Assembly: GCA_963704165.1 (NCBI GenBank)
Contig: CAVPHD010000009.1
Coordinates: 64,001-128,000 of the forward strand
Length of the DNA: 64,000 nt
Direction: 5' to 3'
Source of the DNA: an uncultured delta proteobacterium
Lineage (GTDB): Bacteria; Myxococcota_A; UBA9160; SZUA-336
Both the position numbers and the translations under genes were made by a program. Below, piece by piece: positions 1 through 8,680 of this stretch (within the stretch, counting starts at the first letter, position 1; each line of letters starts with the position of its first letter). Under the pieces are notes generated by a model. The model did no database searches, was not told the DNA's origin, and saw nothing but the letters and a program-made list of their open reading frames with translations.

Positions 1-2654
1 CGCTCCGGATGCTCGGGCAGGCCTTCGATTCGCGCGCGGCCGATTCGGTCGCCGCCGCTCTTCGGAACCACCCACGGCTGATGGCTACCGACGGCGTCGA
101 GCAGGCCGGAGACGTTGAGCGGCCGTTTCTCGTCGTTGCAGGACAGCAGCACGATGTCGTCGCCTTCGAGCGTGGCGAGCGAGAGGCGCGCGCCGGTGCG
201 CAGTCTCAGTCGCCGGCCGATCTCGCCCGGATCCAGATTCGCGGGCACGCGCGCGACCGCGAGCTGGTACTCGCCGAAGTGCACCATGCGCGGGTCGTTC
301 GCCTCGACCCAGTCGGTCTCCGCGCGATACACGTCCGGCGCCGATGGCAGATCGATCGGCTTGCCGGCGAGCACCGGCATGATCTCGGCTCGGTGTTCTC
401 CCGGGTTCTCCGCCATTCGCTTGATCAGCGCGATCACGCGATTGCCCCACTTCTGCATGTCGGCGTCGGAAAGACGGCGCGCCGATAGATCGACGAGCTT
501 GTCGGTGAAGCGGCTGCGCCGCTCCGTCACCTGGCTGACGGCTCCGAGCGGGCTCGTGGCGTTCTCTTCGATCACGATCGAATCCCGCCCGAGAACCGCA
601 CGCAGGCGCTCGAGATCCTCGATCGCCCATTCGTGATGGTCAAACCATTGCAGCCGGCCGCGGAACAGCTCCGCAGTGTCGAGCACTTCTTTCGGGCGCG
701 GCTGCGCGCTGCAGCCCACGACGAGCACGTCGACGTTCTCGGCGATGTCCGTCGCCGGTCCCTTGAAGAAGTCCATCAACCCGTCTTGCGGCGTGACGCG
801 GAACGACACGATCGTGCGTCGGTCTCGTGCGAGTACGAGCGCGGCGAGGATCGAATCCGGATCGTCGCGGACGAGGATCGCGGCGCGCTGCCTGCGCGCA
901 CGCGGTGGCGAGACCTCGACCGGCTCCGCGGCGGGACCCGCTTCGGGCTCCTCGTCGCCGTCGGTGAGGGTGGCTTCCAGGTCGCTCGTGAGCTGTTCGT
1001 CCAGAGCCGAGGCGGCGATGGGCGACGCCTCTTCATCGGTCGCGTCCGCGGCGTCGCGCGGTTCGAGCTCGTCATCGCGCGCGTCGCCGCGAGTCTCGGC
1101 CTCGCCCGCGATTCCGTCCGCGTCCTCGGACGTACCCAGCCGAGCTCCCTCTTCGGATCGCGCCCCGCCACCGCGCCGACCACCGCGACGTCTGCGTCCG
1201 CGACGACCCCGCGATCGCCCCGATTCCTCCTCGCCGACGGGCGCATCCGAAGCTTCCGCCTCGGGCTCGCGCTCCGCTTCGAACGAGGCCGCGTGTTCGA
1301 ACTCGCCCCCGTCGTCGCGCTTCCCTTCCGACGTACCGACGGCGAGCTCGGCCGCTCGGCGAGCTTCACGTCGGGCGTTTCGCTCCTCCGCCGCAGCGGC
1401 CGCGTCGTAGACACTCGCCGCGGCCCCGCCGGACTCGCGGTCGCCGTCGCGCCGCCGGCGACGTCCACGCCGCCCCCCGCGACGCTGCGACCGACCATCG
1501 TCTTCGCGCGTCTCGTCACCATCCAGAGCGTCGTCGGATTCCCGAGCCACCTCGGATGTGAACTCGCGCGCCGGCGCTTCCGGAAGACCGCGCTCTCCGA
1601 TCGGGCCCGCGAGTACCTCGAGGATCTCGCGCGCCTCGTCGGCGATCCCGTCCGCCGAGATGAAAATCCGCGGCGCACCGATCGCACCCGGGCTCCAGAT
1701 CTCGCGATCGAGATCGAGCAGGTGCCAGCCCGCGACCAGACCGGGGACGTCCGAGACTTCGATCCGAGGTCGAATCGCGCCGACGACGGGCCGACCCGCG
1801 ATGTCGATGCCGACCCAGTCGATCGCATCGTCTCCTTGCTCGTTCCAGGGAAGCCAGCGCGCGGTGACGCCCGCGTGCGCCTCGTCGGCACAGCGCTCCA
1901 CCAACGCATCGCGCCGGGCCGCGGAACCGTCGAGCAGCTTCGTGTCGTCTGCGAGTCGCACGACCCACTCGTGCAGATCCGCGCCAATCCGCGCGAAGCC
2001 TGCCTCGGTCGCGCGAATGGTTCGGTTCTCGGGAAGGGCGATCGAGACGACGACCTCGTCGCCCTCGACGCTGACACGCGCGGCGCGCTCGCCGCGCACG
2101 TACAGCAGGTAGCTCGACCCCGCAGGGCGAACTCCGCCGCCCCCGGAAACGGCCGAAGCGCCCTCGAGTACGCGCAGCACGCGGGCGAGCAGGTTCGTGC
2201 TGCCGCCGACGATGGAGGGCCGGGCGGGTGCGGGATGACTCTCGAGCTCGAAGGTCGCGCCTTCCTCCGCCAGCGCCGGCAACGCCAGCAGGTGCACCGA
2301 CGGACCGCACTCGGCTGCGCGCGAAGCCGCGCGCCGGGTGCGCAGAGAGAACTGCGGAGCGGCGATCAGGACCTCGTTCAAGCTGCGGCCACCACCCGCT
2401 CGGCGCGCGGCGATCCGCGCCCAGCCGAGCAGGTCGAGGCCATCCCGGCGGCTCGCGAGCAGAGCGATCGGGCGATTGCCCTGCCATCGCGCCACGCCGG
2501 CCTCCAGACCCTCCGGAAGCTCGTCGAAATTCTCCAGCTCGCGGACCTCGACCAGATCGATGCCGCGCAGATCGCGAAGTCGATCGAGCATACGTCCGCC
2601 GCCGCTGCCGCCGCGGCCGAACCAGCGACCGGCTCCCCAGCCTCGCTTCCTCAA
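1..2654 (-). CDS. Large multidomain protein, runs off the left edge (>884 aa): unknown N-terminus, degenerate PD-(D/E)XK-like segment, Arg-rich/acidic disordered linker, C-terminal DHH/DHHA1-like domain
   Basis: Translated by hand; absent from the ORF track, probably because no stop lies inside the window. AGGAGG RBS precedes TTG at 2654 (alternative ATG at 2591), and the frame is the same at the start, at the DHH motif and at base 3. Motifs: AILVRDDPDSILAA, VDVLVVG, QWFDHHEW (DHH at 633-641), AIDWVGIDIAGRPVV (~1770-1826). Confidence 0.8.
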   Translation of the reverse strand, partial: MRKRGWGAGRWFGRGGSGGGRMLDRLRDLRGIDLVEVRELENFDELPEGLEAGVARWQGNRPIALLASRRDGLDLLGWARIAARRAGGGRSLNEVLIAAPQFSLRTRRAASRAAECGPSVHLLALPALAEEGATFELESHPAPARPSIVGGSTNLLARVLRVLEGASAVSGGGGVRPAGSSYLLYVRGERAARVSVEGDEVVVSIALPENRTIRATEAGFARIGADLHEWVVRLADDTKLLDGSAARRDALVERCADEAHAGVTARWLPWNEQGDDAIDWVGIDIAGRPVVGAIRPRIEVSDVPGLVAGWHLLDLDREIWSPGAIGAPRIFISADGIADEAREILEVLAGPIGERGLPEAPAREFTSEVARESDDALDGDETREDDGRSQRRGGRRGRRRRRDGDRESGGAAASVYDAAAAAEERNARREARRAAELAVGTSEGKRDDGGEFEHAASFEAEREPEAEASDAPVGEEESGRSRGRRGRRRRGGRRGGGARSEEGARLGTSEDADGIAGEAETRGDARDDELEPRDAADATDEEASPIAASALDEQLTSDLEATLTDGDEEPEAGPAAEPVEVSPPRARRQRAAILVRDDPDSILAALVLARDRRTIVSFRVTPQDGLMDFFKGPATDIAENVDVLVVGCSAQPRPKEVLDTAELFRGRLQWFDHHEWAIEDLERLRAVLGRDSIVIEENATSPLGAVSQVTERRSRFTDKLVDLSARRLSDADMQKWGNRVIALIKRMAENPGEHRAEIMPVLAGKPIDLPSAPDVYRAETDWVEANDPRMVHFGEYQLAVARVPANLDPGEIGRRLRLRTGARLSLATLEGDDIVLLSCNDEKRPLNVSGLLDAVGSHQPWVVPKSGGDRIGRARIEGLPEHPE

Positions 2655-2736
2655 GCTGAGTCCTCCTGCATCGCGGCGCCAACTCTATCCGCCACGACGA
2701 CCGCCGCCAGAGGGCCGGCGCACGGAATCGGTCCGT

Positions 2737-3877
2737 CTAGACGTGGGTATGTGGATCGAAGAGCCGATCGTGCTCGTCCATCGCGAAGCGGTCGGTCATG
2801 CCCGCGACGTAGTCGACGATCGCCCGCTCCTCCGGCTCTCCGCGCGCACGGTCGAGCACGTGCGGCGGCAGCTGACGCGGGATCGGCGGCGTAGGCGCGC
2901 CAGAGATCACCGAGGATGCGATCGGCCTTCGCGGCCATCCTCACCACACGGTGATTGCGATAGAAGTTCTCGAGCAGATAGCGCGCGAGCGCGCGTTTCT
3001 CGGTCGCGATCTCCGGAGAGAAGCCGATCAGCGGCTCGGTGGCGGCGCAGGCCTCGGCGGCCGACTTCGGCGCCGCTCGCTCGAGCCGGTTCGCGCTCGA
3101 CTCGATCAGGTCGCTGACCAGCAGGTCGATCAGGACGACCGTGACTCGGGGACGGAGGGTTCTCTCGGAGACATCGGCCTCGGCGCGAAGCACTTCCATC
3201 GCACGCCGGAACAACGCGAGCTCGGAGAGCGAATTCCAGTCGAGCAGATCCGCGCGCAGGCCGTCATCGAGGTCGTGGGTGTGGTAGGCGATCTCGTCGG
3301 AGAGATTCGCGATCTGCGCCTCCACCGTCGGTCCCGCTCCCAGATCCGGCAGTGGCACGGGGTGTGGATAGCGCGGAAAGTCCGAGCCGTGCTTCAGGAT
3401 GCCCGCACGAGTCTCGGCCGTGAGGTTCAGCCCCGGGTAGCGCTCGGAACGGTCCTCGAGCCAATCGACGATCCGCAGGCTCTGACGGTTGTGTTCGAAG
3501 CCGCCGTGCCCCTTCAACAGATCGTGCAGTACACGCTCGCCCGCATGACCGAAAGGCGGATGTCCGAGATCGTGCGCGAGCACGATCGCCTCGACGAGAT
3601 CCTCGTTCGCACCGAGCGCGCGGGCGACCGTGCGTGCGATCTGCGCGACCTCGAGCGTGTGAGTGAGCCGGTTCCGGAAGTGATCCCCCTCGTGATACGG
3701 AAAGACCTGCGTCTTGTACTGGAGCCGCCGGAACGCTCGCGCGTGAAGAACGCGATCGCGATCGCGCTGGAAGACGGTGCGATACGGGTGCTCCGGCTCG
3801 GGCTCGACTCGCCCGCGCGAGTCGCGCGCGCAGACCGCGTACGGAGCGAGGATCTCGCTCTCTCGCTGCTCGGTCAC
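2737..3877 (-). CDS. dgt: Deoxyguanosinetriphosphate triphosphohydrolase (HD-domain dGTPase); +1 frameshift near 2880
   Basis: FQRDRDR, FRRLQYKTQV, RNRLTHTLEV, LAHDLGHPPFGHAGE, FEHNRQSLR. The C-terminal DYVAGMTDRFA lies in the next frame, ending at TAG 2737. Confidence 0.95.
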
Positions 3878-3897
3878 GACCCGGGTTCGCAGCGTCT

Positions 3898-4630: not shown

Positions 4631-5731
4631 GTGAGCCGACTCGAAATGCCAGAGCGCCTGCTGCTCGGCCCCGGACCGAGCAACGTTTCCGACGAGGTGC
4701 GCGAGGCCCTCGCAAGGCCGCTCATCGGTCATCTCGATCCCGCCTTCCTCGCGCTTCTCGACGAGGTGCAGGCGCAGCTCTCGACGGTATTCCGCACGCC
4801 CGACGGCGCGCTGACCCTGCCGATTTCGGGAACCGGGAGCGCGGGCATGGAAGCCTGCCTGGTGAACCTGCTCGAGCCCGACGACCTCCTGCTCGTAGCC
4901 GTGAACGGCGTCTTCGGCGAGCGGATGGCGGTGATCGGCGAACGCTGCGGCGCGCGCGTGCATCGCGTCGAGGCCGAGATGGGCGAGATCGTCGCGCCGA
5001 AACGACTCGTCGCGGAGATCGAGGCGCGACGTCCCGACGTGGTCGCCCTCGTTCATGCCGAGACTTCGACCGGCGTCGCGCAACCCATCGCCGATGTCGC
5101 GCACGCGGCGCGCGCGATGGGCGCCCTCGTCGTGCTCGACTGCGTCACATCGCTCTCGGGGATGGATGTGCGCATGGGAGACTGGGAGATCGACGCGGCC
5201 TATTCCGGTACGCAGAAGTGTCTCGCCTGCCCGCCCGGTCTCTCGCCTCTGGCGATCGGCCCACGCGGTCTCGCCCGTCTCGAGCGCCGGAAGCGTCCCG
5301 TGCAGAGCTGGTACCTCGATCTCTCGTTGATCGGCCGCTACTTCGGGGAGAAGCGCGTCTACCACCACACCGCGCCGATCTCGATGATCTTCGCTCTGCA
5401 TGCCGCCCTTTCGCGCGTGCTCGCGGAAGGCCTCGAGGAGCGATTCGCGCGTCATCGACAGGCACACGAACGACTGGTCCACGGCCTCGAAGCGCTGGGA
5501 TTCGAGATGCTCGTGCCCGCGGAGCATCGGCTCCCGATGCTGAACACGGTACGGCCGCCGGTCGCAGACGAAGCGAAGCTGCGACGGAGACTGCTCGACG
5601 ACTACGGGATCGAGATCGGAGGCGGGCTCGGCAAGCTCGCAGGACGAGTCTGGCGGATCGGGTTGATGGGTGAGAACGCGCGGCCAGAGATCGTCGACCG
5701 GCTGCTCGCCGCGCTGCGCGCGCTGCTCTAG
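4631..5731 (+). CDS. Alanine-glyoxylate / serine-pyruvate aminotransferase (class V)
   Basis: LLLGPGPSNV, HAETSTGV, SGTQKCL (PLP lysine), YHHTAP, WRIGLMG. Confidence 0.93.
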   Translation: MSRLEMPERLLLGPGPSNVSDEVREALARPLIGHLDPAFLALLDEVQAQLSTVFRTPDGALTLPISGTGSAGMEACLVNLLEPDDLLLVAVNGVFGERMAVIGERCGARVHRVEAEMGEIVAPKRLVAEIEARRPDVVALVHAETSTGVAQPIADVAHAARAMGALVVLDCVTSLSGMDVRMGDWEIDAAYSGTQKCLACPPGLSPLAIGPRGLARLERRKRPVQSWYLDLSLIGRYFGEKRVYHHTAPISMIFALHAALSRVLAEGLEERFARHRQAHERLVHGLEALGFEMLVPAEHRLPMLNTVRPPVADEAKLRRRLLDDYGIEIGGGLGKLAGRVWRIGLMGENARPEIVDRLLAALRALL

Positions 5732-7752
5732 AAGGACGGGTCGGGAGCGCCGGCCACGTCTCCGATTCGGTGGGGCTCGGCGGAGATCCCGTCGAGACCG
5801 ATTCCCACCCGCGCCTCGACGGGGAAGTACCGCGCGATGCCCAGCCAGCGCGCGAAGGGAATCACGAGCGATGCACGCGGTCCGGACGTGCCGACCTCGA
5901 GCGATAGCCGCGCCTCGTCGAAGCTCGCGCGCACGCCGATCCCCAGATCTCCACTCGAATCCCCGTTGGCGTAGAAGATCGGGGCGAGTGTGCGCCGCAC
6001 CTCGATGCACGGCATCTCTTGCGGACAGGCCGCGCTCTCGCCTCCGAGCGATCGCTCCGCGACGACGTCCTCGTCCCGCCGCTCGATCTCGATGTCTCCC
6101 ATCGTCCGCGCGCGCTCGCGGTCCACGAACGCCGCCTCGAGCGCATCGGCTCCGGATGCCAGCTCGGTCGCCCACGGGCGCGCGATCAGCTTTCGCCCCG
6201 CCCGAACCTGCGCGTCCAGACGCCGCAGAGAGCGGAGCACGTCGTTCGAGCTCGCGCCGCGCGCACCCAGCGTCTCATCCTCGATCCCCGTCGCCAGCCG
6301 TGCCAGCAGGTCGAGTGACGCCGCCATCGACACCTCGGTGCCAGACTCGGTCTTCCGACCCCGTCCCGTGTCGAGCGCGAGCAGCACGGCCGACGCGCCG
6401 TCCGAGAGATCGCTGACGATGTCCGATGCCGTGGCTTCGAGCGCGGCTCTCGCGACCACGAGGCGCATCGACGCGAGTCGGGTCCAGGCCGTCTGCGAAT
6501 GCGGGAGGACCAGGACACCGTCCTCGAAGACGGAGACACGCGGACTCTTCTGCTCCTGCACCGCGAGTTCGTCGAGCCACGAGGCGGCTTCGGCGGCCAT
6601 CTCCCCGTCGGGAACGAGTTCGAGGTAGCGCCGTGCGACGTCGCTCAAGTCCCGACCCTCCGGTTGCCAGGAACGCCAGGCGCGTGAGGGAGCGTCGATC
6701 ACCAGGTTCGCCGGAGTCAGTGCGCCACGCCAGGCGCGGATGGACTCCTCCCAGGCCTCGAGCCCGTCGCGACTCAGGGACAGAGCCTCCTGCGGAGACG
6801 GAAGCGCGGTCGCCGCGAGCTCCTGCCCGCCGACCCAGCCGAGCGCGCGGCGCGTTCGATACGATCGGAGCTGCATCTCGAACTCGCTCGACGGGTCCAC
6901 CTCCGGATCGGCGAGGAACTCGCCAGCCCGTCTGGCTGCGAAGTCGGTTCCGCGCGCGATGCGGCGGAACTCGTCGAGCGCACCGGGGCGATCGCCGCCG
7001 AGAAATCGCGCGGTCGCGCGCGCGAGCGCCGCGTCGTTCGCATCGCTCGGGCCGAGCGTCCGTGCGCGTTCGAGATCATCGAGGAGCAGAGCAGCGCCGA
7101 GCTGCACCTCCCAGCTCTCGATCGCGCGGTCCGAGTCGGTCCTCGCCGGAGCCGCGTCCTCGTCGAGCGAGGTCCGCCACTCGCTCTCGTCGAGCGCGTC
7201 GAGCAGGCGATCCGCGCGCGTCGAACCTGGCTCGAGTGCGAGTGCACGATCGATCGTCCGGCGCGTGCGCCGCAGGTCCCCGACTCCAAACGCGCGCTCG
7301 GCGTCGGCGAGCAGCGTAGAGACGCGCGCCTCGCTCTCGCGCCGCTCGAGGTGCGAATAGAGCGCGAGGCTCTCCGGGTCGAGGTCGCCACTTCGGACAC
7401 CCGGAGCGAGAAGTGCGAGCGCCTCGTCTTCGGCCCAGGTTCGGTCGTCCCAATCCCGCACGCCCCGGCCGACCCTTCCGACCGCCCGAAGGAGCTTGAA
7501 GGGCGAGGCCTGTAGAGACGCGTGGATGCCGATGTCGACGAAGTCCGCGGACAGATCCGCGAGCTTCCGTCTGCGTTCGGTGGCGAGCAGCTCGAAGGCC
7601 TCGCCGGCACGCGCCTGATCGCTGCGGAGATCGGGGGTCAGGAGCAGACTCGCCGCTTCCTCGCCACTGTCGAACTCTCCCGCGTCACCGCGAATGCCGA
7701 GCGCGAGCACGAGCAGGCCGAGTCCGAGAGCGAGACGCCGCTCAGGGCGCAT
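5728..7752 (-). CDS. Hypothetical exported protein (~674 aa) with TPR-like helices and a beta-rich C-terminus
   Basis: Signal-like MRPERRLALGLGLLVLALG; TPR-like LADAERAFGVGDL..IDRALALEP; long open frame; stop overlaps the convergent aminotransferase stop at CTAG 5728-5731. Confidence 0.75.
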   Translation of the reverse strand: MRPERRLALGLGLLVLALGIRGDAGEFDSGEEAASLLLTPDLRSDQARAGEAFELLATERRRKLADLSADFVDIGIHASLQASPFKLLRAVGRVGRGVRDWDDRTWAEDEALALLAPGVRSGDLDPESLALYSHLERRESEARVSTLLADAERAFGVGDLRRTRRTIDRALALEPGSTRADRLLDALDESEWRTSLDEDAAPARTDSDRAIESWEVQLGAALLLDDLERARTLGPSDANDAALARATARFLGGDRPGALDEFRRIARGTDFAARRAGEFLADPEVDPSSEFEMQLRSYRTRRALGWVGGQELAATALPSPQEALSLSRDGLEAWEESIRAWRGALTPANLVIDAPSRAWRSWQPEGRDLSDVARRYLELVPDGEMAAEAASWLDELAVQEQKSPRVSVFEDGVLVLPHSQTAWTRLASMRLVVARAALEATASDIVSDLSDGASAVLLALDTGRGRKTESGTEVSMAASLDLLARLATGIEDETLGARGASSNDVLRSLRRLDAQVRAGRKLIARPWATELASGADALEAAFVDRERARTMGDIEIERRDEDVVAERSLGGESAACPQEMPCIEVRRTLAPIFYANGDSSGDLGIGVRASFDEARLSLEVGTSGPRASLVIPFARWLGIARYFPVEARVGIGLDGISAEPHRIGDVAGAPDPSF

Positions 7753-8680
7753 GACTCTTGACTCCCTGGTGGTAGGCGAGCAGCGCCTCGATCCGGGTTC
7801 GCGCCTCGTGACGGAGCGCGGGCTTGTGGTCCTCGCCCGCCAGCTCGTAGGCCGAGAACGCCTGATCGACGAGCGCGTCGTACTGCTCCGCATCGAAGCG
7901 TCCGCGGTTCGTCCGTGCCTGCAGCTGTTCGTGTTGCGCGGCGTCGGCGTAGAGATCTCCGAGTCGCAGCAGGTGCTTCGAGAAGAGCTTCGACTCGCGG
8001 TTCGCCTCGATCAGGGTTCGACAGGCTCGAATCGCCTCGGAGAGACGTCCCGAGCGCTCGAAGCCGTCGACGCGCAGGATCTCCCACGCCTCCACCTCTT
8101 CGCGCGCGAGCGGCTCCTGCGGCGTGTTCCGCACCGCGCGCGCGAGGGACCGCCAGCTCTCGAGGCGTTCCTCGATGAAGTGCAACTCTTCCGCGGCGTT
8201 CGCGAAGGGCCGCTCGGGCGCGGCCGACGCAGACGCGAACATCCCGACGATTCTCGCGCGCTCGGCCGCCGCATCGCCGAGAACGGATCCGGACTGCTTC
8301 ACACGCCCGTAGGCACGCGACGCATCCTCGTACCGGCGCAGCCGCTCGAGTGCCTTCCCGCGCGCGAACTCGATCACGTAGTCGGCGTTCTGCCACTCCG
8401 ATTCCCCGCGCGCACGCTGCGCGGCGAGTCGATCGAGCTTCCAGAGCGCGATCGCATAGACGTTGTTGCCGTCCTCACTCACCGCACGATCGAAGCGATA
8501 GGTGTCGTCTCGCATGTGCAGCTTGAGCTGCGAGATCACCACCGTCAGTGACTCGGCCGCCTCGGATGCGGCGCTCGGACTCTCCGTCGGGGAGAAGCCC
8601 GCACAGCCGACGAGCCAGCCGAGACTCGAGGCGATGAACGCGATCTGTCGAAGGCTTCGCACGCTGTCCGAGAACTGCAT
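7742..8680 (-). CDS. Putative TPR lipoprotein
   Basis: Lipobox-like LVGC after a hydrophobic stretch; TPR-like FARGKALERLRRYEDASRAY and LLRLGDLYADAA; overlaps the start of the downstream gene. Start uncertain (8680 or 8662). Confidence 0.75.
   Translation of the reverse strand: MQFSDSVRSLRQIAFIASSLGWLVGCAGFSPTESPSAASEAAESLTVVISQLKLHMRDDTYRFDRAVSEDGNNVYAIALWKLDRLAAQRARGESEWQNADYVIEFARGKALERLRRYEDASRAYGRVKQSGSVLGDAAAERARIVGMFASASAAPERPFANAAEELHFIEERLESWRSLARAVRNTPQEPLAREEVEAWEILRVDGFERSGRLSEAIRACRTLIEANRESKLFSKHLLRLGDLYADAAQHEQLQARTNRGRFDAEQYDALVDQAFSAYELAGEDHKPALRHEARTRIEALLAYHQGVKSHAP

Follow-up and report, generated by a model that had tools for sequence, protein, structure and literature searches.

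What does a bacterial protein do when it carries several nuclease-type folds whose catalytic motifs are incomplete? This question is raised by a gene at the left end of a 64,000-nucleotide (nt) stretch of DNA (hereafter the window; positions 64,001 to 128,000 of contig CAVPHD010000009.1, assembly GCA_963704165.1) from an uncultured delta proteobacterium (GTDB lineage Myxococcota_A; UBA9160; SZUA-336). Structure models of its product, 902 amino acids (aa) long, predict two PD-(D/E)XK folds and one DHH/DHHA1 fold within a single class-wide protein; their catalytic motifs are incomplete, and the architecture is apparently undescribed. Our best explanation is a tentative one, possible and somewhat short of probable: a scaffold that would hold nucleic acids and leave the cutting to other proteins. 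The gene and its parts are as follows.

1..2654, minus strand: the 902-aa gene, with its last 18 codons and TGA 1-55 nt beyond the left edge (from the frame, the contig extension and orthologues)
2662..2667, minus strand: AGGAGG ribosome-binding site, 7 nt ahead of the TTG
2592..2654, minus strand: residues 1-21, Arg/Gly/aromatic N-terminal peptide, similar in kind class-wide
2262..2591, minus strand: module 1, residues ~22-131, predicted PD-(D/E)XK-like (structure match)
1935..2207, minus strand: module 2, residues ~150-240, predicted YjbR/CyaY/MotA-CTD-like (structure match)
1605..1928, minus strand: module 3, residues ~243-350, predicted NucS/EndoMS C-terminal nuclease fold (structure match)
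900..1592, minus strand: low-complexity linker, residues ~355-585 (230 aa; 37 R, 62 D/E)
327..896, minus strand: predicted DHH domain and helical subdomain, residues 587-776 (model, structure matches and motifs)
1..326, minus strand: predicted DHHA1 domain, residues 777-902, extending past the window edge (model and structure matches)

The 902-aa gene and its predicted folds

As the initial annotation had described, one minus-strand frame runs from an AGGAGG-TTG start to the window edge (2654 to 3, 884 codons) and is open throughout. Following the contig leftwards, a check which that annotation had suggested, reaches a TGA after 18 more codons, 55 nt outside the window (G000:C9:63946-63948), and the full gene (G000:C9:63946-66654) has zero in-frame stops. 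The protein is already recorded as a called gene (P0004), and its relatives are annotated as 'hypothetical protein' (source 'Myxococcota bacterium'). A codon model ranks M22 as the best start; we prefer the TTG because the basic N-terminal peptide is conserved, the TTG-register start with its Arg-rich peptide being common to 10/10 loci examined. We ruled out by inspection that the RRxF-like start is a Tat signal, as no hydrophobic stretch lies behind it.

Three orthologues (48, 42 and 30% identity) each align in a single frame across almost the full length, relatives down to 30% identity are full-length single frames of about 840-1040 codons, and the gene was found in 41/41 genomes of the relatives search. 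The 902-aa gene is therefore real and does not stem from a shadow frame or from a fusion by frameshift: an artefact of that kind, for which one could cite the frameshifts carried by this assembly (e.g. in the adjacent dgt), has next to no probability, being already refuted by the colinear orthologues and the 41/41 genomes, and both halves of the protein are modelled with confidence.

The motifs quoted in the initial annotation were all found, namely DDPDSILAA (D597-A605), VLVVG (G647) and WFDHHEW (D672-H674) in the C-terminal half and AIDWVGIDIAGRPVVGAIR (D279, A293, R295) in the N-terminal half. It had placed a DHH-type region in the C-terminal ~290 aa, followed by a small alpha/beta segment; the region stands, at a larger size of about 316 aa (587-902), and the segment can now be named as a predicted DHHA1 domain. 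The model of residues 587-902 (mean predicted local distance difference test, pLDDT, 95) gave 88 PDB matches at E<=1e-3, to DHH+DHHA1 proteins, in agreement with the claimed DHH-type fold. The top VIA match is RecJ-Cdc45 7bhi (Z 13.0, root-mean-square deviation (rmsd) 7.7, 272 aligned), followed by PF0399 5yh1 (Z 12.6) and RecJ2 (Z 11.4). Atlas matches at 0.95-0.97 are unnamed phage and DHH clusters, and viral Foldseek matches carry the names DHH phosphohydrolase and NrnB; Atlas matches of the N-terminal part are below 0.9 and serve as leads only.

DHH enzymes depend on the Asp of motif II; their motifs I-IV coordinate metal, and a pAp (3',5'-phosphoadenosine phosphate) phosphatase is inactivated by mutating acidic ligands (PMC8268124; here and below, statements on cited papers are limited to the accessible parts of each source). 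We counted these motifs over 222 rows (102 aligned sequences plus 120 database fragments, related and partly redundant). Motif I is present here as DxD (D598, D600); position 598 is Asp in 199/222 and acidic in 216/222, and position 600 is Asp in only 137/222. At motif II, whose Asp closes the third strand and looked replaced in the initial annotation, position 647 is Gly in 222/222, and any acid within 644-649 occurs in 9/222, the register being set by a predicted strand (641-646) and non-significant profile alignments (E about 0.07-0.1). Motif III (D672-H673-H674) is intact here, and DHH is intact in 179/222 with natural GHQ and DRH variants, so that D598, D600 and DHH are jointly present in 93/222. 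Motif IV falls on R713 in the hhalign register and on S/A/V724 in a by-eye helix register, neither of them Asp; D718, D/E722 and D732 are conserved nearby. The GGGH motif of DHHA1 reads GGDR here and xxDH in other families, with D869 and R873 alone conserved. Outside these motifs, 30 positions (nine Arg) are conserved in at least 219/222, and R712-R713-S714-R715-F716 is near-invariant. The catalytic residues are thus less conserved than their surroundings, which suggests a pseudo-enzyme; as a control, the separate NrnB-like DHH protein of the class retains all motifs in 31/31.

For the N-terminal half, the initial annotation had recognized the NucS-like part and missed the full layout: the model of residues 22-360 (pLDDT 92) divides into three modules, of which two are PD-(D/E)XK-like. 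The NucS-like fold itself is supported by module 3, which matches NucS 2vld with Z 11.4 (rmsd 2.8, 105 aligned; Foldseek E 3e-6). This alignment is confined to residues 126-233 of 2vld, and the upstream modules resemble other folds at middling Z: XisH 2okf (Z 7.6, rmsd 3.5, 106 aligned) and AspBHI (Z 7.2) for module 1, and YjbR 2fki (Z 7.1, rmsd 3.9, 93 aligned) for module 2. The positions of module 1 expected to be catalytic have no conserved acid (register by analogy), and R158, G165 and R176 of module 2 are invariant. EndoMS activity is abolished by D165A, E179A or K181A (PMC4838380), and the corresponding D-x13-E-x-K spacing falls on D279, A293 and R295 in our protein. Among 95 orthologues, position 279 is Asp in 80/95, position 293 is acidic in 0/95 and position 295 is Lys in 0/95. 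Judged from these alignments, the NucS-type Glu and Lys are lost in module 3, just as the initial annotation's missing ExK implied. Its suggestion that one or both domains may be catalytically altered nucleic-acid-binding modules holds for the loss of catalytic residues, seen in both; that they bind nucleic acids is something we infer.

A possible origin of the N-terminal unit in a NucS-like family of Acidobacteriota, whose D..ELK site is intact, was not confirmed by our comparison. Against 109 such proteins the profiles were colinear over 265-279 columns (E 0.3-0.5); reversed controls scored alike, but over 13-35 columns, and hmmsearch gave no match. The profile test is insensitive, as it also fails for the fold-proven DHH relatives. 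The Acidobacteriota family itself (L085-L164, ~510 aa) keeps its NucS-like D..ELK site, and the ~510-aa member that we searched matched neither Pfam nor PDB sequences; the layout of the family may resemble that of the N-terminal unit.

The 902-aa protein matched no characterized family in Pfam, NCBIfam or PADLOC, in line with the initial annotation, which did not recognize the architecture. Pfam returned a single weak type of DHH match in 4/27 C-domain members (best E 0.0023), nothing significant came from PHROGs, NCBIfam, PADLOC or PDB sequences, and the bacterial RecJ profile TIGR00644 (NCBIfam) did not match. With the defining residues lost, the protein is therefore not a member of the RecJ, NucS or active DHH families.

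Distribution, neighbourhood and repair gene content

A profile of the C-domain matches 48/48 sampled genomes of the class, with a single match in each except for two where it is split over contigs. In other genomes of the phylum it matches 1/203, a 56-column piece at E 9e-4 that we treat as noise, leaving no credible match among the 203; one uncultured class is cleanly marked by this gene (48/48 vs 0 credible/203). A search for stand-alone forms of the domains found family fragments alone among the matches listed (8; best 120 of 274). Remote relatives outside the class are under-sampled in these searches.

Full-length recJ over the cut-off was found in 0/81 class genomes, with one partial match where a contig ends, in a class genome of 74% completeness, as compared to 85/99 genomes outside the class in the same phylum. 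Pfam DHH matches follow the same direction (12/48 class vs 197/203 other genomes), and the 10 class matches examined are other DHH proteins. One of the class's DHH proteins is NrnB-like (L207-L234; ~287 aa, Cys in motif I, other motifs intact, below the Pfam DHH cut-off). This intact enzyme is found in 48/49 genomes of other families, so the 902-aa protein is not the only DHH protein of the class, and in only 3/31 genomes of the window's family. Orn over the cut-off was found in 1/81 class genomes and in 0/31 of the window's family, where the top PF01612 matches are 411-839-aa frames, RNase D-like rather than of NrnC size, and Pfam DHH matches occur in 2/6. The window's family is without a standard nanoRNase among those searched. 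A further protein of ~460 aa, with an intact DHH domain and an additional one at the N-terminus, turns up sporadically in the class (L076, L077, L080-L083).

As for repair genes, ExoVII and RecO are present in the window's own genome, and MutS is present in 61/61 class genomes. The latter rules out that the 902-aa protein replaces MutS-type repair, and since the class has MutS, the protein is not needed as an alternative mismatch system.

A queE-like gene lies downstream in 34/36 genomes and dgt upstream in 30/36, both co-directional and with the misses at short loci. The conservation of architecture and of dgt linkage across homologues, which the initial annotation had suggested checking, was found for both. 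Often 1-3 unrelated genes separate the 902-aa gene from dgt, frequently CutA and two uncharacterized genes (~380-400 aa and ~116 aa), a pair seen at this place, between dgt/cutA and the 902-aa gene, in many families (L033:4057-5259, L037:4074-5222, L024:4444-4806; no NCBIfam match in the two tested). The upstream neighbour in the window is listed here.

2737..3892, minus strand: dgt (dGTP triphosphohydrolase), co-directional and separate from the 902-aa protein (orthologue comparison)

This dgt is frameshifted at ~2880-2897 relative to an intact orthologue, probably by assembly error, given that this genome has split copies of mutS and recO too. Further into the window, 5728-7893 (minus strand) holds a 721-aa frame without a Pfam match, possibly exported, upstream of an aminotransferase.

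The charge-block linker and its counterpart in RecQ

The linker alternates Arg/Gly and acidic blocks, with net charges of +7 to -6 per 10 residues. Both block types are found in 27/27 orthologues, where the linker is 151-305 aa long, and its composition suggests disorder. The initial annotation called this part an RNase E-like disordered region. That description fits the composition and extends no further: the only counterpart among the other genes called in this genome is a RecQ-family DNA helicase, and an RNase E/G catalytic domain is not attached (no Pfam match in the 902-aa protein). The genome's own RNase E/G is a separate gene of 580 aa that lacks Arg blocks and has just a short acidic tail.

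We surveyed Arg blocks in 3056 genes (crude script calls, own genome alone). A strict block test returned the 902-aa gene as the sole hit, and a looser Arg-run test returned eight runs in five frames, i.e. two in the 902-aa protein, three in the RecQ-family helicase and three in shadow-like frames. Arg blocks are absent from the frames that were found here for Rho, IF2, PNPase and DEAD-box proteins. The blocks in RecQ are conserved (30/30 family loci; 13/14 loci of other families), and by sharing them with RecQ the protein shifts the weight from RNA to DNA, short of proof. The helicase (L235 at G000:C4:482082-484244, minus strand, and L240-L283) carries 1-3 N-terminal poly-Arg blocks among acidic spacers, and in the RecQ of the class an Arg run often follows the zinc domain. 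A neighbour of recQ resembles CysQ/inositol monophosphatase by sequence inspection and could handle pAp.

It is on this evidence that an RNA-decay scaffold has to be weighed, in which the linker would form RNA condensates as the RNase E tail does, with RNA or ribonucleases bound by the dead folds. In Caulobacter RNase E the alternating charge-block pattern is required for bacterial ribonucleoprotein bodies (BR-bodies; 10.1101/272286), a pattern that the blocks of the 27/27 orthologues fit; the genome's 580-aa RNase E/G lacks an Arg-block tail that could serve instead, and RecJ4 of Haloferax volcanii holds an RNase J (PMC10470531). On the other hand, RecQ carries the Arg blocks and the frames checked above (Rho, IF2, PNPase, DEAD-box) do not, this genome, 84% complete, yielded no RNase J, and no RNA-decay gene is among the identified conserved neighbours. 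We consider this reading unlikely, though with a real chance of being right. The RNA or nucleotide-turnover factor proposed in the initial annotation was not borne out: the RNase E likeness is compositional, RecQ is the sole counterpart among the called genes of the genome, and turnover is disfavoured because metal ligands are missing.

A proposed non-cutting scaffold and the remaining alternatives

The explanation that we prefer, tentatively and on the strength of modelled folds and analogy, is a non-catalytic nucleic-acid scaffold of the Cdc45/RecJ4 kind, likely in DNA maintenance. The arginine-rich surface of the DHH/DHHA1 half would hold on to single-stranded nucleic acid but not hydrolyse it, a second binding surface would come from the three N-terminal modules, and the linker would recruit partner enzymes. 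A RecQ-family helicase with similar Arg-block tails is our best guess for the partner, and cutting would be left to other nucleases, e.g. ExoVII.

Cdc45 and the inactivated archaeal RecJ proteins (arCOG00428, arCOG00432, RecJdbd) likewise combine DHH and DHHA1 with degenerate catalytic motifs. Such groups persist lineage-wide where active RecJ is missing (PMC3307487, PMC5615345), and Cdc45 binds single-stranded DNA and does not cut it (PMC5615345). Unlike them, the 902-aa protein is bacterial, carries a long linker and a NucS-like unit of three modules in the same chain, and is encoded outside a recJ neighbourhood; the likeness does not extend to evidence of a helicase partner. H. volcanii RecJ4 (arCOG00429) is an inactive DHH scaffold with a large disordered region that holds active nucleases (PMC10470531), and it shares with our protein a degenerate DHH next to a long disordered or low-complexity region. 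RecJ4 has S1 and OB folds and an active paralogue as partner, whereas the 902-aa protein has PD-(D/E)XK and YjbR-like folds instead. Among other relatives, NrnB-like, phage and giant-virus DHH phosphohydrolases are of similar size and have the H-x-D-x-D layout in most families; by comparison, our protein is fused, has lost the motif II Asp and GGGH, and matches them in sequence only non-significantly. Module 3 shares with NucS/EndoMS the C-terminal fold and the first Asp of D-x13-E-x-K, and differs in the lost Glu and Lys. The RNase E C-terminal scaffold shares the alternating Arg-rich and acidic blocks; the 902-aa protein lacks its catalytic domain and any sequence match, and this type of tail is also found on the RecQ of the class.

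Several observations weigh against a RecJ-like scaffold. Because recJ was lost and the gene gained in one event on a single branch, their anti-correlation carries no statistical weight; 14/99 genomes outside the class have neither recJ nor the 902-aa gene. Outgroup recJ loci contain secD/secF in 13/20 and dgt or queE in 0/20, and the genome's own secDF locus, ~157 kb from the 902-aa gene, contains neither gene and no remnant; positional orthology with recJ (a secD-secF-recJ neighbourhood) is ruled out by both. The rmsd values to DHH structures are 7-17 Å, probably due to domain hinge differences, and the fold ranking therefore identifies no subfamily. Weak profile alignments are colinear with NrnB-like proteins over 178-228 columns vs 59 with RecJ, both non-significant, and the protein ends at DHHA1, with no further C-terminal domain as in RecJ. 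A new metal site could be made up of D636, E679 and D680, which are invariant, together with the almost invariant D869 and D732. Further Arg-block proteins may have escaped our survey given crude gene calls and assembly frameshifts, and the neighbours (dGTPase, QueE, HIT) suggest nucleotide metabolism.

The possible metal site leads to a reading that we regard as rather unlikely: the DHH half could be an active, rewired phosphoesterase (nanoRNase, pAp phosphatase or RecJ-like 5' exonuclease) with new acidic ligands, and the rest of the protein a substrate-delivery arm, which corresponds to the turnover idea of the initial annotation. Its best argument is that the window's family lacks a standard nanoRNase among those searched (NrnB-like 3/31, Orn 0/31, none of NrnC size); the conserved acid at D598 (216/222), the DHH intact in 179/222, the five acidic residues just named and the position of the gene between dGTPase and QueE are also consistent with an enzyme. 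A Gly in place of the motif II Asp in 222/222, the loss of GGGH, a motif IV without Asp in both registers tried and the natural GHQ and DRH variants argue against activity. In addition, other families hold the intact NrnB-like enzyme as well (48/49 genomes), and the CysQ/inositol monophosphatase-like gene by recQ could take care of pAp.

More doubtful still is an adaptor or sensor without a role on DNA or RNA polymers, whose dead DHH cleft would bind a small nucleotide (dGTP, pGpG or a cyclic dinucleotide, c-di-NMP) or a protein and regulate neighbours such as dGTPase. The strong conservation of cleft-type residues but not of catalytic ones is what such a protein would have, as are the co-directional dgt (30/36) and queE-like gene (34/36). 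Three nucleic-acid-type folds and an Arg-rich linker exceed the needs of a small-ligand sensor, and the 1-3 unrelated genes that often intervene before dgt loosen the link.

The Cdc45/RecJ4-like scaffold can also be stated in a bolder form, which we think improbable: a bacterial counterpart of Cdc45 and RecJ4, i.e. a class-defining, probably essential triple pseudo-nuclease that takes RecJ's place, be it at the fork or within the RecQ pathway, and co-condenses with RecQ via their poly-Arg/acid tails. If true, this would amount to bacterial DNA-end processing built without RecJ.

Archaea and eukaryotes have published examples of inactivated DHH scaffolds (Cdc45, RecJ4); our literature search, with most subscription papers and all supplements outside its scope, found no bacterial one in the accessible parts of its sources, and no such architecture. 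If the scaffold reading is true, the 902-aa protein would show that bacteria independently turned a nuclease into a structural factor, and would pose as a testable question how DNA ends are processed without RecJ in this class, and also how short RNAs are cleared in one family without a standard nanoRNase.

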